The notes beneath the pieces were generated by a model. It was not told where the DNA came from, searched no databases, and saw only the letters and a program-made list of their open reading frames with translations. Made by a program: the position numbers and the translations under genes. Positions 11,477 through 25,269 of a DNA stretch of 25,285 nt are shown piece after piece. Origin of the DNA: a virus (Duplodnaviria > Caudoviricetes); IMG/VR virus record IMGVR_UViG_3300032247_000307, positions 1 through 25,285 of that record. The stretch is one strand, 5' to 3'. The first letter of the stretch is position 1. Each line of letters opens with the position of its first letter.

Positions 11477-12283
11477 TTAGAATTGTTTCCAAAACATATG
11501 TTCTTGTTTTAACCATTCTACAGTTGAGGCGACTAGCTCAGGACTGTGGGTTTCAAATTGGTCCATGACATCAACTATGCTAGTATAACATCGACGTTCA
11601 GTCAACGCCAACAGCATATGATGCCATTTGTGTATGTTCCATCCCGTATAACTCATATGCGCTAGATAAAAATCAACAGTATCCATATCTGCTAACTTTA
11701 TCACATTCCATGGACCATGAAATCCAAAACTAGGAGCATAGTTGCCCAGTTCATAACTAAACTGTGATGCCAGTGCTACATCCGGATAACAAATATTGTA
11801 CTGGTCTTCTAGGTATTGCCGATATGCATGTCCAATGACTTGATCTTCATTGACCGCATTTGGATCATTGGCATCCATTTTGATTCTGTGATCTTGTAAT
11901 GCTTCTAATAATTTACGGCTACGCAAACTAAACCCACCATTACCGATATTGGTTCCCGGAGATGCCCAGGGCCAAGGTGCACCGATATAATCATATTTTA
12001 GGAATTCATTGGTCCACATAGATTTATTGTAGGCCATTGCATCCCATTGTACAAATAGAATATGGTCAGTGGTTATGTGCTCCAACATGCCACGTAGCAT
12101 AAATTCACAATATTCTGTTACACTGGGAAAGTGATCAACATGCACATTACGGGCACCGGCCAGTATGGACTTGTTGCTAAATGTTAATACTTCGGCAACG
12201 TCTATATGTTTTAATGTTTCCGTAAGTGCTCTTGCAGCCAACTCATGATACATTGTTTCTTGAGTAACTAAAGTAATACTCAT
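11477..12283 (-). CDS. DUF5672-family protein (glycosyltransferase-like)
   Basis: FVQWDA...YDYIGAPW...GNGGFSLRSRKLL...NED...FGFH. Start at 12283 gives an ATGA overlap with the upstream stop. Confidence 0.8.
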   Translation of the reverse strand: MSITLVTQETMYHELAARALTETLKHIDVAEVLTFSNKSILAGARNVHVDHFPSVTEYCEFMLRGMLEHITTDHILFVQWDAMAYNKSMWTNEFLKYDYIGAPWPWASPGTNIGNGGFSLRSRKLLEALQDHRIKMDANDPNAVNEDQVIGHAYRQYLEDQYNICYPDVALASQFSYELGNYAPSFGFHGPWNVIKLADMDTVDFYLAHMSYTGWNIHKWHHMLLALTERRCYTSIVDVMDQFETHSPELVASTVEWLKQEHMFWKQF

Positions 12284-13179
12284 AGCTGTTTGATAATAGC
12301 GTTGGCAATTTTGGCAACATCCCATAGTTTGTTACAAGCAAAGTCTCCGCGTTCACAAACAATACCACGCACAGGTCTTTCTTGACGACTATGGCAACCA
12401 ACACAGTCAACATTGGCCTGGATAATCGTACAGTTATCTCCCATGACTCCGTTACGATACGGCATTACTTTTTCAGGACTCATATGGCTCAGTAATGCCA
12501 CAATATGTGTTTCGCTTGCACCTGCAATATGAAATGGACCCGAATCAATACCAACAAAACATTTGGCATGATCCAGCAAATAACATAATGCTCCGGGTGT
12601 TATGGTTCTTCCATCGATCACTCTTGGATGTTCTTCAGGGAAAAAATCAGTAGGGCCACCAACGCAGACAATTTTAACATCTGGGTTTGCTGTAAAAATT
12701 GCGTCAAACACTCCTACCCAAACAGCAGGATCAATGTTTTTTAATTCCCAATGCCATCTACGCATATGTACCGCAATAAACGGCGCATTAATAGTTTTGA
12801 CAAATTCATCAACGGCAGATTCTTCATCGTCACTGATAAACAATTCCATGCTACGATCCATGTCAGTTGTACCAAATACTCTATAGAAATAGTTGTCGGC
12901 AAAATGACCTGTGGGATTGTATTCATATGTATCATCTAAGTTATAGTACACATCATATAATTCCGGTGTAGATAAAGAATCATCTGTTTCGCTAATAGTA
13001 ATTACATTGCGGATATGAGGATTATGATCAAAAACTGTGGGATGTTGAGTTGCTACATCAATGACGCAATTATCTCCATACATGGCCTTTAGTTCACGCA
13101 ATATTCCGGTGGCAACTACTACATCGCCCAGTGCAGCTCGTCTACGAACTAATATTCCAATTGGTACTTCTAGTTTCAT
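12280..13179 (-). CDS. Glycosyltransferase family 9 (heptosyltransferase WaaC/WaaF-like)
   Basis: RRAALGDVVVAT and FVGIDSGPFHIAGA; C-terminal CxxC...C...C. Confidence 0.85.
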   Translation of the reverse strand: MKLEVPIGILVRRRAALGDVVVATGILRELKAMYGDNCVIDVATQHPTVFDHNPHIRNVITISETDDSLSTPELYDVYYNLDDTYEYNPTGHFADNYFYRVFGTTDMDRSMELFISDDEESAVDEFVKTINAPFIAVHMRRWHWELKNIDPAVWVGVFDAIFTANPDVKIVCVGGPTDFFPEEHPRVIDGRTITPGALCYLLDHAKCFVGIDSGPFHIAGASETHIVALLSHMSPEKVMPYRNGVMGDNCTIIQANVDCVGCHSRQERPVRGIVCERGDFACNKLWDVAKIANAIIKQL

Positions 13180-14396
13180 TCTTCTACTGCAACTTCTGGA
13201 AAATATTTAACAAAGCGGTCAACTTGGTTAGACCGTTTTTGTTTAATGCGATTACGAATCTCACTGTAAAAATTCCATGCTAATGGGATAAACAATAATT
13301 TATCATCGGCACCAAATTGATCTAAATAATCAATTGATACAATAGGAATATGTTTACCGGGGCTATATAAACCTTGTTTAAGAGAATTATCATCGATGAT
13401 TACGTCAACATCTAAATTAGAATATTGCAACAAAGTATTGCCCTTTGCAGCTGCACCATAGCCAATGACCCGATATCCTTGTTGCCTGTATCCATCTACA
13501 GTACCAACCAATCCCGCTCTCATAGCTTCAACACTTTGCGTCCACTTTGTATAACGTTCGCCTGACATTAATCCCTGGCTTGCTTCTAGAGCAATAAGGT
13601 TTTTAATATGCTGAGTACGCTCATGCCCGCTTACTACAAAAATGTAACTAGTACCGTGAATTGGTGTCTTAACAACATCTTCTAAATATAGTCCGGCACG
13701 TTTACATAATTCATTCATGCTATTAATATTGTAAAAATTAATATGCTCATGATATATAGTATCAAATTCGTTATTAACAATCATGTCAGCCTGACTTGTT
13801 TGAATAAAGAACTTGCCACCTTGGCGTAAAATACGTTTAATATTCTTTAGGTAGGTAACTGGATCTGGATTATGTGCAAAGCTATTTTGTGCCACAACAA
13901 TGTCAAACCGATCGTCATTTTCAACCATTGTATCGGTAAGATCGGTATCAAAGAAACTGCAATAAATTTTATGATTTATACTACTGGTTTCGTACAGATT
14001 TTCTGCCGGATCAATTCCACAGGTAGTTAGTCCCATCTGCTTGAAATAATCTAACTGAGTTCCATCATTGCATCCAATATCAAGAACGGTACTTGGCCAA
14101 TAACTCATATGTTCTTTGGCAAACTTTGCAAACCATTCAAAGTGATCACGGCCAGTTTTACTTGTGCCACTAACATACAGATAGTGAGTATAAATTAATG
14201 CCGGATCAACTGCGTGTGTGAGTTGTAAATGATTGCAATGATTACATCGGTTCACTGCCAGAGGAAATTTTGGTTCCTCTACTTGCAAATTCTCAATACA
14301 GTTATTTGCAAGTGCCTGTATTCCTAGATCAAGTTGAAAGGTGAGATCACTGCTGCCACATGCCAAGCAGTCGTCGATTTGATTACAGTTGTTCAT
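13176..14396 (-). CDS. SAM-dependent NDP-sugar C-methyltransferase
   Basis: N-terminal Zn site CLAC...CNHC, LDIGCNDG, FDTIYHEH, IHGTS, GYGAAAKGNTLL, LAWNF: TylC3/EryBIII/NovU-type architecture. Confidence 0.85.
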   Translation of the reverse strand: MNNCNQIDDCLACGSSDLTFQLDLGIQALANNCIENLQVEEPKFPLAVNRCNHCNHLQLTHAVDPALIYTHYLYVSGTSKTGRDHFEWFAKFAKEHMSYWPSTVLDIGCNDGTQLDYFKQMGLTTCGIDPAENLYETSSINHKIYCSFFDTDLTDTMVENDDRFDIVVAQNSFAHNPDPVTYLKNIKRILRQGGKFFIQTSQADMIVNNEFDTIYHEHINFYNINSMNELCKRAGLYLEDVVKTPIHGTSYIFVVSGHERTQHIKNLIALEASQGLMSGERYTKWTQSVEAMRAGLVGTVDGYRQQGYRVIGYGAAAKGNTLLQYSNLDVDVIIDDNSLKQGLYSPGKHIPIVSIDYLDQFGADDKLLFIPLAWNFYSEIRNRIKQKRSNQVDRFVKYFPEVAVEE

Positions 14397-15115
14397 AAGT
14401 CTGTTCTATAGTTTGATTCTGGGTATTCATTATTGTAATGAAAACTCACGTCAGCTTTGTTGTGACTAGAATGTATTTCATACACATGTGGTTGACCCTG
14501 GCCAACCCATGCTTCACACTCATATCGCACATTACCCGGATCCAATACAATATCAGGTTTGAGTAATTTGCTCTTTGTTCCCCACACCACTGTGGTTGGA
14601 TCCTGCAATAAGGGCAATCGACGAATATAGTTAGTATTTGCCCACCAGGTATTTCCGCTTAGATGTGGCCACGGATGATCTAACCAGTTAACTCCAACCA
14701 GCTCAAATCCTTCGTCTAGTTTATCTACACTATCTCGCCAACGCTCAATTCCCCAGTAGGTTAAATGTCGGCGCCAGTCTATAGTTTTTTGGTCTGTTGG
14801 GCGTGTAATACCTTTTAAGTGTGCATATCCAACATAGTGCAACTCGGTATCATCATCAGCATCTAGTTTAATTTGATTAATAGTTGGCCACTCCCATTTA
14901 TGGGGATCACCGTTGACGTGACGAACACGAATTTTGTCACTGCTTCTTAACAAAGGTAATAACGGAATTTCCATGGTACTCAAAGTACCATTTAGACATA
15001 GATTAATTTCATCCATTTCGTCAATCAATCCACTACTGTCCATTTTTTCCAACATCTCAGCAAATATTGATTGCCAAGTTGGTAGTTCGGGCATGTGTAA
15101 ATAAAACTTCTTCAT
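14393..15115 (-). CDS. Hypothetical glycosyltransferase-like protein
   Basis: EWPTI...YAHLKG...HLSGNTWWANTNYIRRLP...RYECEAWVG. Start at ATG 15115, directly after the upstream stop; cluster context. Confidence 0.6.
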   Translation of the reverse strand: MKKFYLHMPELPTWQSIFAEMLEKMDSSGLIDEMDEINLCLNGTLSTMEIPLLPLLRSSDKIRVRHVNGDPHKWEWPTINQIKLDADDDTELHYVGYAHLKGITRPTDQKTIDWRRHLTYWGIERWRDSVDKLDEGFELVGVNWLDHPWPHLSGNTWWANTNYIRRLPLLQDPTTVVWGTKSKLLKPDIVLDPGNVRYECEAWVGQGQPHVYEIHSSHNKADVSFHYNNEYPESNYRTDL

Positions 15116-15116
15116 A

Positions 15117-15827
15117 TCAATTCCTAATAGCTGCACCATTGGGTGCAATTGTGCCTTCAACACCCACTTGATCAATTTCAAGCACATGTTCTGTGGGCAA
15201 AAACTTAGCAAGAACGTGTTCGATGTCGGTGTATCCACCATTTGATACACGTTCATTAAAGTGTTCAAAACTTTGTTTGTATACTGTGATTATCTTGTCT
15301 GTTAACTGTATTGGCCATGACCACAAACGTGCCATATATTGCCAAGTTTGTTGAGTTAATTTGGGATCAAACTGTGATTGATATTTTTTACCAATGATGA
15401 TTTTATCAGTTTCTCTCTCGTATAGTCCAACATCAAATTGATCATTGATCAAATACCGGCCACTCATTTTGTGTACACGATCAATTCCGTCAAACTCTTT
15501 GTCATCGTTAAGAATTTTAAGAGCCTGGCCAAAGCACATGATTTCGGTACCATTCTTTACTATATCCCAGTTGTCTGTACTATTGTAAAGTTTTCTAACA
15601 TCTTCTTCTTCAGTAAAATCTAAAAACACATCTGCAATACCAGATAATACCTCAGACTGTTCCTCTGTCAAAGCGACTCCGGTAACTTCCATGAGCACAA
15701 TCTTGGAGTCTGGAACATGTTTACGTATACTTTCAATGGTACTAATGGTCTGAGCCAATCTTTCAATTGGCGGAAAGATACCGAAGCGACTGTTAATGGC
15801 ACTGGTTACAATAAAGCAATGTTTCAT
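15117..15827 (-). CDS. Hypothetical glycosyltransferase-like protein
   Basis: FIVTSAI...R..QT..TIESI...KMSGRY...DIEH; lies in the sugar operon. Confidence 0.6.
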   Translation of the reverse strand: MKHCFIVTSAINSRFGIFPPIERLAQTISTIESIRKHVPDSKIVLMEVTGVALTEEQSEVLSGIADVFLDFTEEEDVRKLYNSTDNWDIVKNGTEIMCFGQALKILNDDKEFDGIDRVHKMSGRYLINDQFDVGLYERETDKIIIGKKYQSQFDPKLTQQTWQYMARLWSWPIQLTDKIITVYKQSFEHFNERVSNGGYTDIEHVLAKFLPTEHVLEIDQVGVEGTIAPNGAAIRN

Positions 15828-16864
15828 TTACTGAGCCAACGATTGTTGTCTAGGGTCCACTTGGTCATTTCGGCTATACGCTCACTTAGTTTAATACGTG
15901 GTTCCCAACCTAATTCTTTTAGTAGACCGCCATCCAATGCATATCGCAAATCGTGCCCTGGCCGAGATCCGTGGAAGTCAACCATTTCGTAATTGAGCTC
16001 TTTGCCCTGTGCATCAGCAATCCATCGTGCCAATGTTAGATTATCTACTTCTTCTGTGCCAACTAAGTTAAATTTAGGACAATGTGCATGTCCGTAATCG
16101 CCTGTGTGTTTATAATCCAATGGCAAGTTTTGCAGAATAAACATCAGTCCTTCTGCCACGTCCTTGGCATGAATATACATACGTGTACCAGCTTCTGTCT
16201 TTTCGGCATTGGCATGGATATACACCCGCTCACCGTCTCTGGCACGTTGGATAACCATTGGGATAAACTTCTCAGGATGCTGGCGTTCACCGAACACGTT
16301 CATGGTATGTGTGACCACAATAGGCATTTTATATGTGTTTTCATAAGCGACACAGAACTCTTCTGCTGCCGCTTTGCTAGCCGAATACGGGTTGGTTGAG
16401 TTGTACCTATCGTATTCTTTATAAGACACCCCAGGCGGCGCCACACCAAAAATCTCGTCTGTGGAGAAGTAAACAAAACGTTCCAAGTCAGGTAAATTTT
16501 TACGTGCATAATCTAACATGTTAACAGTACCGACAGTATTGTCTAACACAAACTCCATGGGATATGTAATTGAACGATCTACGTGGCTACCAGCTGCCAA
16601 ATGCAGCACAATATCAATGGGACCAATGTCCTTGACAATCATTTCATTTAGTTCTGCTTTGAGATCATGAAAAACAATGCGTAGTCGTTCACTAACCATT
16701 TTAGGGTCATGTTCTTTTAACATGTCATGTAGGCGATTTAAGTTTCCCGAAATATCCAGTCTATCTAGACAGATAATTTTCCAATCGGTTGTTTTTAAAA
16801 TGTTATCAATTGCATGATGTGCAATAAAGCCGGCACCGCCGGTAATTAGTACGTTCTTTGACAT
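15824..16864 (-). CDS. rfbB: dTDP-glucose 4,6-dehydratase (NAD-dependent epimerase/dehydratase)
   Basis: TGGAGFI, HLAAGSHVDRSI, STDE, YSASK, QHPEKFIP, RPGHDLRYA; GGAG RBS. Confidence 0.9.
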   Translation of the reverse strand: MSKNVLITGGAGFIAHHAIDNILKTTDWKIICLDRLDISGNLNRLHDMLKEHDPKMVSERLRIVFHDLKAELNEMIVKDIGPIDIVLHLAAGSHVDRSITYPMEFVLDNTVGTVNMLDYARKNLPDLERFVYFSTDEIFGVAPPGVSYKEYDRYNSTNPYSASKAAAEEFCVAYENTYKMPIVVTHTMNVFGERQHPEKFIPMVIQRARDGERVYIHANAEKTEAGTRMYIHAKDVAEGLMFILQNLPLDYKHTGDYGHAHCPKFNLVGTEEVDNLTLARWIADAQGKELNYEMVDFHGSRPGHDLRYALDGGLLKELGWEPRIKLSERIAEMTKWTLDNNRWLSK

Positions 16865-16973
16865 AGTTCTCCGTGTATAGTCGATATGGTATTTATTTTA
16901 TATATTTTACTGTCTGTAAATTTTTAAAGCAACGAATCCGGACTGAAATAAGTAATATATATAAGAGGACATT

Positions 16974-17612
16974 ATGCTATCACTAAGACAAATATTTGAC
17001 ACAAAAATAACACTAAAATCTGACAAATGGGAACCTTACTTTGACACATACGAATCGTGTTTTGGTAGATTCCGAAATGCAAATCCAACCTTTGTAGAAG
17101 TGGGCGTACAAAGTGGTGGTAGTATGCAAATGTGGGTTGAATACTTTGGCCCCGGAGCTCGTATATTTGGTACTGATATTGCACCCGAGGTTACAGAGGT
17201 AGAGGGTGCCGAGATCATTGTGGGTGATCAGTCCAGTAGAGAATTTTGGGATAGTATTCTTCCACGCATTGGTCCAATTGATTGTTTTGTTGATGATGGT
17301 GGACACACTAGTACACAAATGCTAGTTACATTCGAAAAAGTGTGGCCCATGATTAAACCGGGCGGGGTATATGTGTGTGAAGATACTCATTGTTGTTACT
17401 GGGGCGGGTGGGAAGGTGCATATCGAGGTGAACATACCTTTATGGAATTTGCCAAGAAGTTTGCCGATGTAGTACACGGTGATCATTTTCAAATGCCAGA
17501 AGAATTGCAGGCGCTACCAAGGGATATACTACAGGTTAGTTTCTTTAATAGTCAGATTGCGTTTGTTAAGGGTAGACCCGCATTTAATAGATTAATAGTA
17601 AACCCAAAATGA
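16974..17612 (+). CDS. Class I SAM-dependent methyltransferase (sugar O-methyltransferase-like)
   Basis: VEVGVQSGGS, GDQS, DDGGH, GGVYVCED; AGAGG RBS. Confidence 0.85.
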   Translation: MLSLRQIFDTKITLKSDKWEPYFDTYESCFGRFRNANPTFVEVGVQSGGSMQMWVEYFGPGARIFGTDIAPEVTEVEGAEIIVGDQSSREFWDSILPRIGPIDCFVDDGGHTSTQMLVTFEKVWPMIKPGGVYVCEDTHCCYWGGWEGAYRGEHTFMEFAKKFADVVHGDHFQMPEELQALPRDILQVSFFNSQIAFVKGRPAFNRLIVNPK

Positions 17613-18367
17613 AAATAGTTGTATGCACTGGTGGGTTTGATCCGTTGCATAGTGGGCACATTGCCTACTTAAATGCTGCAGCTATGCTCGGTGATAGACT
17701 GATTGTGGGCGTAAACAGTGATGCATGGCTTGAGCGTAAAAAGGGTCGTGCATTTATGTCTGCGGCAGAACGTAGATCCGTAGTCGGTAATTTAAAACCA
17801 GTATACTGCACTATGTTGTTTGATGACAGCAATGGATCTGCTGTTAAACTGTTAGAAGAAATAAAATTTGACAATCTTTACGCTGATATTATATTTGCCA
17901 ATGGCGGAGATCGTACAGCCAGTAATATCCCAGAAATGTCAGTACAGGGTGTAACATTTGCATTCGGTGTAGGCGGGGGAAACAAAGCCAACTCAAGTAG
18001 CTGGATATTAGAAGAATGGAAAAATCCCAAAACAGAACGTACCTGGGGCGAATATAGAGTACTGTATGATTGTACCGGAACCAAAGTTAAGGAATTAACA
18101 ATCGAGCCCGGACAATCATTGAGTATGCAACGACACATGCATCGCGCCGAGTACTGGCATGTGGTATCGGGACAATGTATAGTAGATCAAAGATTAGAAA
18201 ATGGGAATCGGTTACCGGCAAGAATAATGGTTGCCCACGATAACATTGTAATACCCACTAACGGATGGCATCAATTACAGAATCCATATGATGAACCTTG
18301 TCGTATTGTGGAAATACAATACGGCACACAGTGTGATGAGCTAGATATTGAGCGAGATCAATCTTGA
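17609..18367 (+). CDS. Nucleotidyltransferase (RfaE domain II/TagD-like) fused to a mannose-6-phosphate isomerase-type cupin
   Basis: GGFDPLHSGH (HxGH), GVNSD, FANGGDR, SSS; then RTWG.Y, LSMQRHMHRAEYW, HQLQN, EIQYG..DIER. Confidence 0.85.
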   Translation: MKIVVCTGGFDPLHSGHIAYLNAAAMLGDRLIVGVNSDAWLERKKGRAFMSAAERRSVVGNLKPVYCTMLFDDSNGSAVKLLEEIKFDNLYADIIFANGGDRTASNIPEMSVQGVTFAFGVGGGNKANSSSWILEEWKNPKTERTWGEYRVLYDCTGTKVKELTIEPGQSLSMQRHMHRAEYWHVVSGQCIVDQRLENGNRLPARIMVAHDNIVIPTNGWHQLQNPYDEPCRIVEIQYGTQCDELDIERDQS

Positions 18368-22852: not shown

Positions 22853-23317
22853 TCATTTATTAAATGACCATTTTACCACAATACCACCGGATGGTACATA
22901 TACTCCGGTAGATGCTACGTTGTAGTTTCCACAAATTTGAATCACTTCAGTTGTTTGATTACATAACTGCAAAAATGCTGTTGTTTTAGTGTCGCTCTGG
23001 ATACGAGTCTGATAATTATCAGCCACCCATATACCACCAGCTAGATCCCAGACGCCACTTCGATAAAAAGAGTAAGATGTTAACAAATAGTTTGAATACC
23101 GTGTCTCAACAAAACTGTTGCGGCCATGTATAAATCCAACTTTTACTCGATCAATTGGCTCATACTCAATGCCAACACCCCATACATTATCATTATGTTT
23201 TTCGCCATCGAAGTGCTGTGCAATAGTTCGAACTTGGAGATTTAAATCTCCTTGTGCAGCCATTGCAGAACTCGCTACAATTAGTGTAAAAATACAAAAC
23301 AGGATTTTTTTCATCAT
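22853..23317 (-). CDS. Secreted outer-membrane beta-barrel protein, PagP-like
   Basis: Signal peptide (..AMA-A), amphipathic beta strands, QHFD...HNDNVWGVGIEY...RNSF...SNY, aromatic C-terminal strand KWSF. Confidence 0.6.
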   Translation of the reverse strand: MMKKILFCIFTLIVASSAMAAQGDLNLQVRTIAQHFDGEKHNDNVWGVGIEYEPIDRVKVGFIHGRNSFVETRYSNYLLTSYSFYRSGVWDLAGGIWVADNYQTRIQSDTKTTAFLQLCNQTTEVIQICGNYNVASTGVYVPSGGIVVKWSFNK

Positions 23318-23356
23318 AACCTTAAAATGAGTTAATTACGTCTATCATCACAAAAT

Positions 23357-23621
23357 GCTCTGGCGTCCCTCGGCGGTAATTATATCGCATCAGAAATTTG
23401 GTCAGCAAGTTTTATCTCACCAATTAGTCTTTCATCACACACGACCTCCACCCGCTTCCCGACAGGGACCGTTCTCGTATTGCTAACGCCGGTTAGGTTG
23501 GACCGCACATACATCCATGTTCAATCATGGCTTCTGTGTGAAACTTTTCCGTTTCAGAACCACCCGTGCATGTCATTGCACTTCTCATCGTCTGGGTCAG
23601 ACTATCCAGTGACGCTGGAAC
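23357..23621 (-). ncRNA. Candidate structured ncRNA (~265 nt) immediately 3' of tRNA-Cys; possibly related to the GOLLD 3' domain
   Basis: Ends pair (GTTCcaGCGTC / GACGCcaGAGC), many internal helices, GC-richer than flanks, no credible ORF. The family assignment is a guess. Confidence 0.65.
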
Positions 23622-23625
23622 GTTT

Positions 23626-23703
23626 TGGAACACTGGGCTGGATTCAAACCAGCGATTTTACGGATTTGCAATCCGTTGCATTTGATCACTCTGCCACCAG
23701 TGC
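23626..23703 (-). tRNA. tRNA-Cys(GCA)
   Basis: Anticodon arm ACGGA-TTGCAAA-TCCGT, T arm GCTGG-TTTGAAT-CCAGC, U73, CCA. Confidence 0.9.
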
Positions 23704-23710
23704 ATAAACT

Positions 23711-23794
23711 TGGTGCCCCAGGGGAGACTCGAACTCCCACACCTCTCGATAACGGCTTCTAAGACCGTCGTGTCTACCATTCCACCACCAGGGC
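23711..23794 (-). tRNA. tRNA-Leu(TAG)
   Basis: Anticodon arm ACGGT-CTTAGAA-GCCGT, long variable arm, TTCGAGT, A73, CCA. Confidence 0.95.
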
Positions 23795-23800
23795 CGATAA

Positions 23801-24961
23801 TTACTTATCGTTTAAGCTGTTATTGTATGTGAATTCGATTTTACTGTCAACATGTTTTTTCATGATATTTTCAAAATCTTCAAGTTTTTCTGCTTTGGGC
23901 GCACAGTATCCACATATGCATCGTTCTTTTGCACATTGTATAACTGGCATCTTGTTTGAGTCAATATCTTTTTGCAACGTTTCTAGGATAGATCTGTAGT
24001 CTGCAATATTGCCAATTGGCCCAACTGTTCCATCTATACGCATACGACAATCTTTATTTAAAAATACATCGCCGGTTAATTGTCGTACAAACAAAAAATA
24101 CCAATTAACACTACAATACCAATTAGAAAAATCATTGGCTGGCATAAACGCAACCGGATTGGCCAACTCTTGATTACCACAGAGTTTGCGTCCCCCGCAA
24201 CAACTTCTACCAACATCCCCCACGGTTCCGGAGTCTACTAGATTCATTACATCTGCAATAATGTGCTGACTCTTGGTAGATGTTTTTGATTTGTAATATT
24301 TTTTAAAGAACATAAATTGTTCATTATTATACTTCCACTCGGGGGTAGGTCGATCATTGGCTTTAACAATATGTTTAATATTGTTTTGTTTACAAAATTC
24401 AATTGTATCTTGACTAATCTGCCATTTGCTGGGATCGTTATGCATAACAAACACTACCTTTTGATTTCGGCCAATGCTTTTATTATAAAGTATATTATCA
24501 CGAACCTGTTGATGCTGTTTAGGTAATGCCTCACTATGAAAGCTAATAGTAAATTCATCAATGAGTTCTGAAACTCGTTGCCATAAATTGACCCCGGCTA
24601 CTGCATTTGTAGTACAAGTAACTGTCAATGGCCAATCGTATTTTGTGTGACGTTCTCGTACCTGTTCAAGTATATACTCAATCTCGGGATGAAAAATGCT
24701 TTCGCCGCCGTATACATTAAGAACTACCATTCTCTGCCATTTGGGTTTCAACTTCATGTATTTGTCTGCATACTCATACATAAAATCAATTGTACGTAAA
24801 CACTCCTTTAGTGGAGGATGATTTGTGCTATTATCATGGCCTACGCCTACTGGACAATAACTACAGTCCAGGTTACACTTCATCGTAAGTTCCCAGTCTA
24901 ATAGAAAAGTTGGTCTATTAGATGGGTCAATTGCTGGTTCAATGGATATAATTTTTGTCAT
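23801..24961 (-). CDS. Radical SAM protein with Cys-rich C-terminal (SPASM/Twitch-like) extension
   Basis: CNLDCSYC (CxxxCxxC), GGE, TTN, SFHSE; C-terminal CC...C...C...C...CxxxxCxCxxC. Confidence 0.9.
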   Translation of the reverse strand: MTKIISIEPAIDPSNRPTFLLDWELTMKCNLDCSYCPVGVGHDNSTNHPPLKECLRTIDFMYEYADKYMKLKPKWQRMVVLNVYGGESIFHPEIEYILEQVRERHTKYDWPLTVTCTTNAVAGVNLWQRVSELIDEFTISFHSEALPKQHQQVRDNILYNKSIGRNQKVVFVMHNDPSKWQISQDTIEFCKQNNIKHIVKANDRPTPEWKYNNEQFMFFKKYYKSKTSTKSQHIIADVMNLVDSGTVGDVGRSCCGGRKLCGNQELANPVAFMPANDFSNWYCSVNWYFLFVRQLTGDVFLNKDCRMRIDGTVGPIGNIADYRSILETLQKDIDSNKMPVIQCAKERCICGYCAPKAEKLEDFENIMKKHVDSKIEFTYNNSLNDK

Positions 24962-24972
24962 GTTATTAATTA

Positions 24973-25254
24973 TCTATAAAAAGGTTGGACATATAAAATC
25001 TGCTTTTCAACCGCTGATCGTTGCATGGCAAGTAATTAACTCACTCACTAAGTAAGTTCAAACGGTGACATGCCGTAACCTCGCTTACTTGTTTCTTCAC
25101 GAATTCTTGGCCATTCACAACTTTAAAATCAATTTGCCGCCTCGGGGGTTCCCGATACTTAGGTCACGGGCTGCTTTTCTCAGGCAAGTTGTTGTTACTA
25201 GACCTCCAACAGGTATCAGATAGCTGCCTTGCTTATGTCCAACTTTTTTATAGA
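24973..25254 (-). ncRNA. Candidate structured ncRNA (~280 nt) closed by a 21-bp terminal stem
   Basis: Inverted repeat 24973-24993 / 25234-25254 (20 of 21 match), nested helices, no ORF; directly downstream of -10 and boxA. Confidence 0.65.
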
Positions 25255-25257
25255 CAA

Positions 25258-25269
25258 TGTTAAAGAACA
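25258..25269 (-). promoter_or_regulatory. boxA-like antitermination element
   Basis: TGTTCTTTAACA versus rrn boxA TGCTCTTTAACA (11 of 12), 6 nt downstream of TATAAT. Confidence 0.7.

Follow-up and report, generated by a model that had tools for sequence, protein, structure and literature searches.

Phage tRNA arrays are known to hold structured RNAs besides their tRNAs. In phage T4 two small stable RNAs, rnaC (139 nt) and rnaD (119 nt), the species 1/2 RNAs, are placed behind a tRNA within the tRNA array. GOLLD is an ncRNA of lake phages near tRNA arrays, and GOLLD and ROOL are described as occupying the same niche (PMC12286853). ROOL is pseudoknotted, about 575–660 nt long, found near phage tRNA islands, and forms cages. 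The theta ribozymes of gut phages, which are HDV-like, also adjoin phage tRNA genes (PMC10879173). Two structured RNAs of T4-like cyanophages, manA and wcaG (RF01761), are described as 5'-UTR riboswitch candidates (PMC2864571), and ARRPOF, a Fusobacterium plasmid element, is reported as an RNA of 255 nt with four pseudoknots that dimerises by domain swapping (PMC12990946).

The window, by which we mean the whole stretch of DNA that was analysed, is a virus record of 25,285 bases rated as 7% complete, which implies a genome of about 350 kb. Besides a UvsW-like helicase it codes for enzymes that modify sugars, and its minus strand carries five tRNAs. We are confident that the minus strand at 23356..23623 is the gene of a real, conserved ncRNA, 268 nt long from ACGU to AGAGCA as delimited by the family alignment and model R1. 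It belongs to an ncRNA family of uncultured large phages that is not catalogued in Rfam 15. The general kind, an orphan ncRNA in a phage tRNA array, is already known, but the fold with its tandem pseudoknots is new. A preliminary description had considered that the phage tRNA cluster might hold a structured RNA of a new class, and conservation, covariation and the lack of a reading frame support this.

The locus and its surroundings

The gene is flanked by a tRNA-Cys on one side and an ORF on the other. The tRNA-Cys(GCA) lies directly upstream (23626..23703, minus strand, called by ARAGORN including the CCA), and in front of it is a tRNA-Leu(TAG) (23711..23794, minus strand, ARAGORN), the first gene of the likely transcript. 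The RNA had first been placed at 23357..23621, starting 4 nt after the CCA of the tRNA-Cys; this distance agrees with the ARAGORN call and the locus stands, while the family alignment shifts the two ends to 23623, 2 nt after the CCA, and to 23356. A sigma-70-like site, TTGACA-17-TACAAT (23822..23850, minus strand), is the likely promoter of the tRNA-Leu, the tRNA-Cys and the ncRNA. It was the top site of the promoter scan with 11 of 12 matches, in a scan whose total of 12 sites against a chance mean of 9.9 is at chance level. The ORF on the other side (22853-23317, minus strand, 154 aa) lies 39 nt behind the ncRNA, and its match to a PagP-like family of phages is weak (E 1e-5).

Within the gene there is no ORF of 50 aa or more on the ncRNA strand, and a plus-strand ORF of 75 aa (23480-23707) was rejected as coding, it runs antisense through the tRNA-Cys. 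Translation of the stretch could be rejected from the family as well: the lengths of the members fall into all three classes modulo 3 (58/42/39), and no sense frame stays open in 129 of 139. The G+C content of the ncRNA stretch, 0.48–0.51, is above that of the surrounding ORFs. Folded as a single sequence the stretch had a z-score of -1.16, with 25 of 200 shuffles as good and neither strand beating its shuffles, and the minimum-energy fold includes a false terminal helix. A single sequence folds no better than chance; the support for the ncRNA is comparative. Rfam found only tRNAs in the window at gathering scores, and only chance-level matches at E ≤ 10.

Elsewhere in the window, positions 11477-18367 hold sugar-nucleotide and methyltransferase genes (GDP-mannose dehydratase, mannose-6-phosphate isomerase, GT9 and C-methyltransferase), a cluster that looks as if suited to surface glycan synthesis. 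An intergenic element of 290 nt (24969-25258, minus strand) has a 25-bp inverted repeat at its ends, a fold far superior to that of its shuffles (z-score -4.28) and no credible Rfam match; it may be a further ncRNA or else a small mobile element. As a partner of the ncRNA the element was rejected, a search without positive control giving no match in five near-complete phages.

Members and distribution of the family

The family comprises at least 139 distinct full-length sequences, the window's included, of 170–277 nt and from at least 239 full-length loci. The first motif scan had found 5 true relatives among 80 loci, and further patterns anchored at the 3' end, in the middle and in the 5' domain gave far more; the counts are lower bounds, and the invariance of some columns partly reflects the search anchors. 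A profile search matched 270 of the 407 loci collected by the pattern scans, which are again minimum numbers. The metagenome scan contributed at least 120 matches and at least 86 further distinct sequences. Among cultured phages there was no match to the window RNA, and a short member gave only chance words of 19–24 nt (E 8).

One exact-pattern scan of the GTDB genomes returned nine loci, of which one is real (L400); a single pattern is no proof that cellular genomes lack the family. The contig that carries it (L400/L630, contig 90 of the bacterial metagenome bin G006) is 23 kb long, with 28 tRNAs in the first 20 kb, and codes for phage-family proteins beside the family copy, and it is thus probably a piece of a phage in the bin. 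Five near-complete phages of 342–525 kb, all picked for holding a match, have one copy in four cases and two in the fifth, G003. This record of 525 kb has its two copies (L411 and L415) in two tRNA arrays and also two bS21 genes, and may be two phages joined in assembly.

Close relatives were present in contigs from RNA runs of four metatranscriptome studies of lake and freshwater, 4 of the 16 listed runs. In three of the runs 159–180 bases were covered with 5 differences, and in the fourth there were two shorter pieces. The ORFs flanking the window RNA had no cover in the four runs, the holders of these contigs being relatives with other neighbours. Contigs from RNA libraries give the presence of relatives, not strand, ends or level, and could hold DNA.

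A literature search, mostly without subscription papers, found no description of this RNA. The published candidates in PMC10690425 are 29–151 nt long. Its tables, searched by motif and contig name, hold no match, and pieces of the family may stand in its alignments.

Secondary structure and covariation

The members have a fixed fold: a compact 5' domain with two tandem pseudoknots comes first, then a hairpin with a tertiary pair, and then an arm at the 3' side that is long and irregular. The hairpins at the periphery are ornaments that members can do without, and the window copy is an ornamented member. From the 5' end the order is ACGU, P1, UA, P2 with the loop ACC, GAUGAGAA, P3, GGGUGGU, P4 with ACC in its loop, P5 and AGAA. 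In the 3' part P6, a small helix, a bulge, P7, an internal loop, P8, an optional K-turn, a variable tip and the tail AGAGCA follow.

To test covariation we aligned 34 of the 139 members independently with MAFFT; they were chosen for diversity and are all of at most 215 nt except the window's. The revised fold with both knots was 96.1% paired and 33 of its 49 pairs had changed on both sides, a covariation that none of 500 shuffles reached, and slid controls were 33–47% paired. Covariation among relatives had been suggested as a check in the preliminary description, and the outcome was clearly in favour of the RNA. In anchored columns 138 members were parsed (L313 was dropped for a wrong start) and 136 scored (L282 and L305 were dropped as mis-parsed). 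The top ten covarying column pairs of these 136 are all Watson-Crick pairs and lie in P1–P6 and P8, and on the tree the strongest helix pairs share 13–33 changes by branch as compared to 2–5 for three unrelated column pairs.

All positions that follow are on the minus strand. P1 (23605..23619) is the hairpin TCCAG/CTGGA with a variable loop, 93.5% paired and with all five pairs double-changed. The 5' bases thus form a local hairpin, which is why the terminal pairing GTTCcaGCGTC/GACGCcaGAGC, proposed earlier, fails: it is 65% paired and 142 of 500 shuffles are as good. P2 (23590..23602, GTCTG/CAGAC, 99% paired) has the loop ACC (23597-23595) that takes part in pseudoknot 1. The A-rich linker behind it (23582..23589) is conserved, with GA and GAA invariant, and judged by the geometry of H-type pseudoknots it would dock in the minor groove of P2. 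P3 (23566..23581, GTGCA/TGCAC) contains the top-ranked covarying pair, with 33 shared tree changes. The first part of the GGGUGGU strand (23559..23565) belongs to pseudoknot 1 together with the P2 loop, and the last GGU to pseudoknot 2 together with the P4 loop.

P4 is 97% paired, and in the window an insertion of 51 nt makes it a four-way junction (23489..23557). It consists of P4a (23556-23539), P4b (23538-23506, containing CCATG/CATGG) and P4c (23505-23490), the loop of which (23501-23494) supplies the ACC for pseudoknot 2. Such an insertion is present in 31 of the 138 parsed members, and the 26 distinct insertions of at least 30 nt each fold into two hairpins. Read by eye, the pairing TGAAAC/GTTTCA is kept through sequence change among the long forms, and CCATG/CATGG turns into ACATG/CATGT in L120. 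P5 (23472..23488) is the hairpin CGU/ACG with the 7-nt loop UAGCAAU and the linker AGAA, and has a lone pair between 23479 and 23472. The GCAA of this loop had been taken for a GNRA cap but is not a strict GNRA tetraloop; the variants GCUA and GCAG are found as well, and the seventh base of the loop covaries with a base behind the stem.

The long 3' arm extends from P6 to P8 (23364..23471). P6 pairs 23471-23464 with 23370-23364, with seven of seven pairs double-changed, and a local TCCC/GGGA hairpin from the preliminary description loses out to it: the hairpin is 83% paired and has one of four pairs double-changed, and 339 of 500 shuffles are as good on the latter measure. Between P6 and P7 there is a 2-bp helix and an NGRA bulge. 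P7 (23455-23452 with 23376-23373), in which the second pair is C-G, A-U or U-A, is separated by the conserved internal loop GUGGAG/AUAAUUA from P8 (23445-23440 with 23389-23384), which is 100% paired. Beyond P8 (23390..23439) come the optional K-turn (UGUGAUG ... CUGA, box C/D type) and a variable distal hairpin. The latter includes TTGGT/ACCAA, which is present in the window but lies in the variable arm and was left out of the pair counts. A box C/D-type K-turn has a 3-nt bulge, tandem G-A/A-G pairs, a U-U and a G-C, and the stretch in the window (23439-23433 with 23393-23390) has all of these. The pattern occurs in 95 of 138 members and is absent from 43, and two chance-level C/D snoRNA matches of the Rfam search fall on it. 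The unpaired 3' tail (23356..23363) ends in AGCA, which is kept in at least 97%, and is followed by a U-rich run; TTTT follows the tail in 45 of 139.

Every stem that had been listed in advance can be read in the sequence, and most of them recur in the family fold with compensatory changes: GTCTG/CAGAC as P2, GTGCA/TGCAC as P3, the stem of the GCAA hairpin as P5, the long-range GTCCCT..CG/CGAGGGAC as P6 and GCGG/CCGC as P7. GTCGTGT/ATGCGAT corresponds to P8 in its first six pairs. That first list had neither P1 nor either of the pseudoknots, and it lacked the four-way junction and the K-turn.

Pseudoknots and tertiary contacts

Pseudoknot 1, predicted between the P2 loop and GGGU, is supported by covariation. 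The scored pair is A-U in 130 and G-C in 6 of 136 members, and all four tree changes are shared; by eye, L225 (ACAC/GUGU) and L084 (GUCC/GGAC) add to this outside the scored set. Pseudoknot 2, between the P4 loop and GGU, is likely to form. It is 96–100% paired and nearly invariant, with one shared change (L164), and its GGU strand was fixed by design in one search pattern. Both knot strands switch together in L164 and L084. Three couplings outside the helices point to a packed fold: the lone pair between the last base of the P5 loop and the fourth base behind the stem (U-A in 127 and C-G in 9 of 136, seven of seven changes shared), the coupling of the P3-closing base with a base of the P4 loop (8 shared tree changes), and that of the linker base just before P4 with a P4 pair (7 shared tree changes).

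A sister family and the modular build of the RNA

In tRNA arrays there is also a sister family of about 210 nt, with about 15 distinct sequences from 93 pattern matches. It has the same P1, P2, GAUGAGAAG and P3, and a GGGAC strand that matches its own UCCC loop, but another 3' half. The ten sister loci tested scored 21–40 bits, and the sister form had no match in cultured phages. Its members are L545, L546/L233, L547, L549, L551, L557, L560, L562, L563, L579, L582, L585, L592, L604 and L623, with L267/L594 more distant.

Within the family proper L283, L326, L386, L450, L462 and L488 have another or a shorter distal arm and keep the 5' domain and P6, so the distal arm is not a universal binding surface. 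A recurring distal junction, CCUG-CUGAG..GAUGG..AACCAGG, takes the place of the internal loop and the K-turn in L326 (880-1010), L386, L450, L488, L496 and L501. The 5' knot is kept both in the arm variants and in the sister family, which implies that it is the oldest and most constant part of the RNA, and as the 5' module recurs with another 3' half it appears to be a reusable unit.

Position in tRNA arrays and probable release of the RNA

As a gene of its own, the RNA shifts its place among tRNA arrays, and there is usually one copy per genome. In 80 of the 133 members with enough flank the end of a tRNA is at most 12 nt upstream, the spacing in these being 1–6 nt and exactly 2 nt in 58, and the tRNAs directly upstream are of 12 kinds. 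CCA is found within 6 nt upstream in 98 of 139. On the downstream side 47 of 132 have the start of a tRNA no more than 15 nt away, and a same-strand tRNA is at most 500 nt away in 96 of 104. The gene neighbours of the copies are not conserved. The variable tRNA context, and the tRNAs that follow downstream, imply that no fixed mRNA is regulated; taken together the counts describe a gene of the array, neither the leader of one mRNA nor the trailer of one tRNA.

In the other 53 of 133 copies ARAGORN called no tRNA directly upstream. Eight of these have a match to a loosely defined promoter pattern, and in several the RNA is preceded by another small hairpin RNA. Conserved hairpin elements of about 70 nt, of several kinds and not called by ARAGORN, are seen between tRNA and ncRNA, about 70 nt upstream of the latter, and many of them end near a CCA (L100, L178/L209, L223 and L227; L110 and L394; L142 and L184).

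It is probable that the ncRNA is released from a tRNA transcript. Judged by the context and by what is known of tRNA processing, it would share a transcript with the tRNAs, begun at a host-type promoter, and would be cut free as a stable RNA by the host nucleases that process the adjacent tRNAs. Release by tRNA 3' processing had been put forward in advance; it would suit the 80 copies that start close to a tRNA, but not the 53 that do not.

Comparison with known RNAs

The window RNA is similar to GOLLD in being an ornate ncRNA near phage tRNA arrays, and the GGAA..AUAAU loop near the 3' end of the GOLLD consensus resembles its internal loop. GOLLD differs in having a model of 416 positions, many members of more than 800 nt and another order of helices. 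With 170–277 nt the family is also well below the size of GOLLD and ROOL, about 550 to more than 800 nt. The suggestion that the RNA might be a minimal GOLLD or ROOL came with a search with their models as a check, and neither matched. The GOLLD model (RF02032) found nothing in the window at E ≤ 10 and nothing in 20 homologue loci at E ≤ 5, whereas in the near-complete phage G004, the positive control, it scored 201 bits at another locus. This GOLLD is a separate gene (L408, 1086-1966) with a tRNA-Lys inside and a long structured-looking 5' region, and it ends about 420 nt upstream of a family copy in the same array, a copy among the closest to the window's (182 bits). Model R1 did not match the GOLLD of L408, and there was no cross-match either way. 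ROOL (RF03087), like the window RNA pseudoknotted and near tRNAs, had no match in the window at E ≤ 10, in a single-family search without positive control.

The T4 RNAs are alike in position, and rnaD (L416, 1554-1672) starts with AUGAGAAA and a hairpin as the window RNA has its linker and P3, with a score that is not significant. They are shorter, rnaD ends in CCA, and no pseudoknot strand was seen in them. The best score of R1 on the rnaC/rnaD locus was 6.5 bits (E 0.28), partly on a tRNA-Arg. The manA RNA (RF01745), which with a model of 192 positions is of similar size, had no match in the window at E ≤ 10, and its 5'-UTR placement at a metabolic gene is not found here: no fixed gene lies downstream, and 47 of 132 members are directly followed by a tRNA. 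ARRPOF is like the window RNA in size and in having several pseudoknots, and the window RNA has no Rfam match. Theta ribozymes have a minimal HDV fold. An HDV-like topology is a nested double pseudoknot, and the present knots are tandem, in an RNA of 170–277 nt with a variable spacer and no match to an HDV-type model.

The RNase P RNA model (RF00010) had no candidate in the window, with the control above cut-off in 8 of 14 genomes, and ARAGORN found no tmRNA. A permuted-tmRNA match on L199, at 23 bits and E 0.2, stayed below the cut-off of 47. Apart from tRNA, no Rfam family was above cut-off in the twenty homologue loci. A likeness to the RNase P S-domain or the L1 stalk was rejected, the matching bases lie in covarying helices of another order, and so was a hammerhead ribozyme in the CUGCUGAG insert that some relatives carry, where the core bases do not fit the consensus.

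Possible functions

The ncRNA may act in trans by its shape, and would then bind a host protein that works in translation, in RNA decay or in the defence against phages. The protein would be held as a decoy or on a scaffold, by an RNA that is made in step with the phage tRNA supply. We regard such binding as the most likely job of the RNA, a reading that we hold tentatively. The type III antitoxins are described as pseudoknotted RNAs that neutralise proteins by direct binding (PMC12373285). Points against this reading are that the neighbours of the copies are not conserved, that a phage-encoded L7Ae partner was rejected, a protein of that family being absent from the five genomes examined, and that the K-turn itself is missing in 43 of 138 members. 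A fixed companionship with bS21 was likewise rejected, as it was found in three of the five genomes. It is a more doubtful suggestion that the ncRNA is a protein-free counter-defence decoy, which would trap host tRNA-cutting nucleases or a nucleotide alarm signal so that the replacement tRNAs of the same transcript survive.

Instead of a protein the RNA could bind tRNA in trans, clamping the elbow or the CCA end and protecting the phage tRNAs or helping them to mature. The copies do reside in tRNA arrays and the UGGU of the ncRNA is complementary to ACCA, as in T-boxes, where a free UGGN pairs with the NCCA of the tRNA. Also GGGUGGUACC, found in some members, GUGGRA and UGAGA look like T-box and RNase P loop motifs. 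The GGU is kept in 137 of 138 parsed members, partly by the search anchor. However, in L164, L084 and the sister family its strand has changed along with loops of the RNA itself and complementarity to CCA is then lost, which weakens the case for CCA binding. Furthermore, GCAAUACG is a covarying hairpin and not a joining strand as in RNase P, deletions are tolerated in UGAGA, and no T-box or RNase P model matches, and we find tRNA binding unlikely.

An oligomer made of RNA only, like GOLLD, ROOL or ARRPOF, with the pairings between loops and GGGUGGU swapped between chains, has about the same low probability. The niche is that of GOLLD and ROOL (PMC12286853), the domain-swapped dimer of ARRPOF is a precedent (PMC12990946), and the 5' end is palindromic in many members (GAACGTTC in 61 of 139). 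Pairing in trans looks like pairing in cis in an alignment, and covariation is therefore blind to the difference. Against an oligomer, there are no spare conserved loops left for kissing, the peripheral loops vary freely, both knots could close inside one chain, and there is no homology to GOLLD.

Slightly less likely still is that the knotted 5' domain forms a pocket for a small molecule, as an aptamer that soaks up a nucleotide signal, or the core of a trans-acting ribozyme of a kind not yet known. The domain is laid out like several riboswitch aptamers, as an H-type knot in which a hairpin is inserted and the third loop is A-rich and invariant, and the 5' module is reused with another 3' half in the sister family. 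Yet no riboswitch or ribozyme model matches, and there is no expression platform, a tRNA often being next downstream.

Cis regulation and the formation of tRNA ends fit the context poorly. An element in cis, which like the theta ribozymes would generate the 3' end of the tRNA before it or else would protect the transcript, would explain the close spacing behind the tRNA (80 of 133) and the nearby CCA (98 of 139), but it is improbable, since the spacer varies in length, the upstream tRNAs already encode their CCA, a single copy has to serve arrays with as many as 28 tRNAs, promoter-like sites precede some copies instead, and the topology is not HDV-like. A shrunken homologue of GOLLD or ROOL, to which the common niche and the GGAA..AUAAU loop could point, is very improbable and largely refuted by the failed searches and by the presence of both genes in G004.

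Should the ncRNA protect translation from host defence, phages would have in it a new weapon made of RNA. If the RNA is the protein-free decoy considered above, the 5' knot module shared with the sister family would define a clan of phage decoy RNAs. The stable orphan RNAs of phage tRNA arrays, T4 species 1/2, GOLLD and ROOL, lack an assigned function, and the present family joins them. It is small, down to about 170 nt, deeply sampled and strongly covarying, and has natural minimal and ornamented forms. Together with the predicted tertiary contacts, the small size makes it a tractable target for structure determination and for the hunt for its partner.
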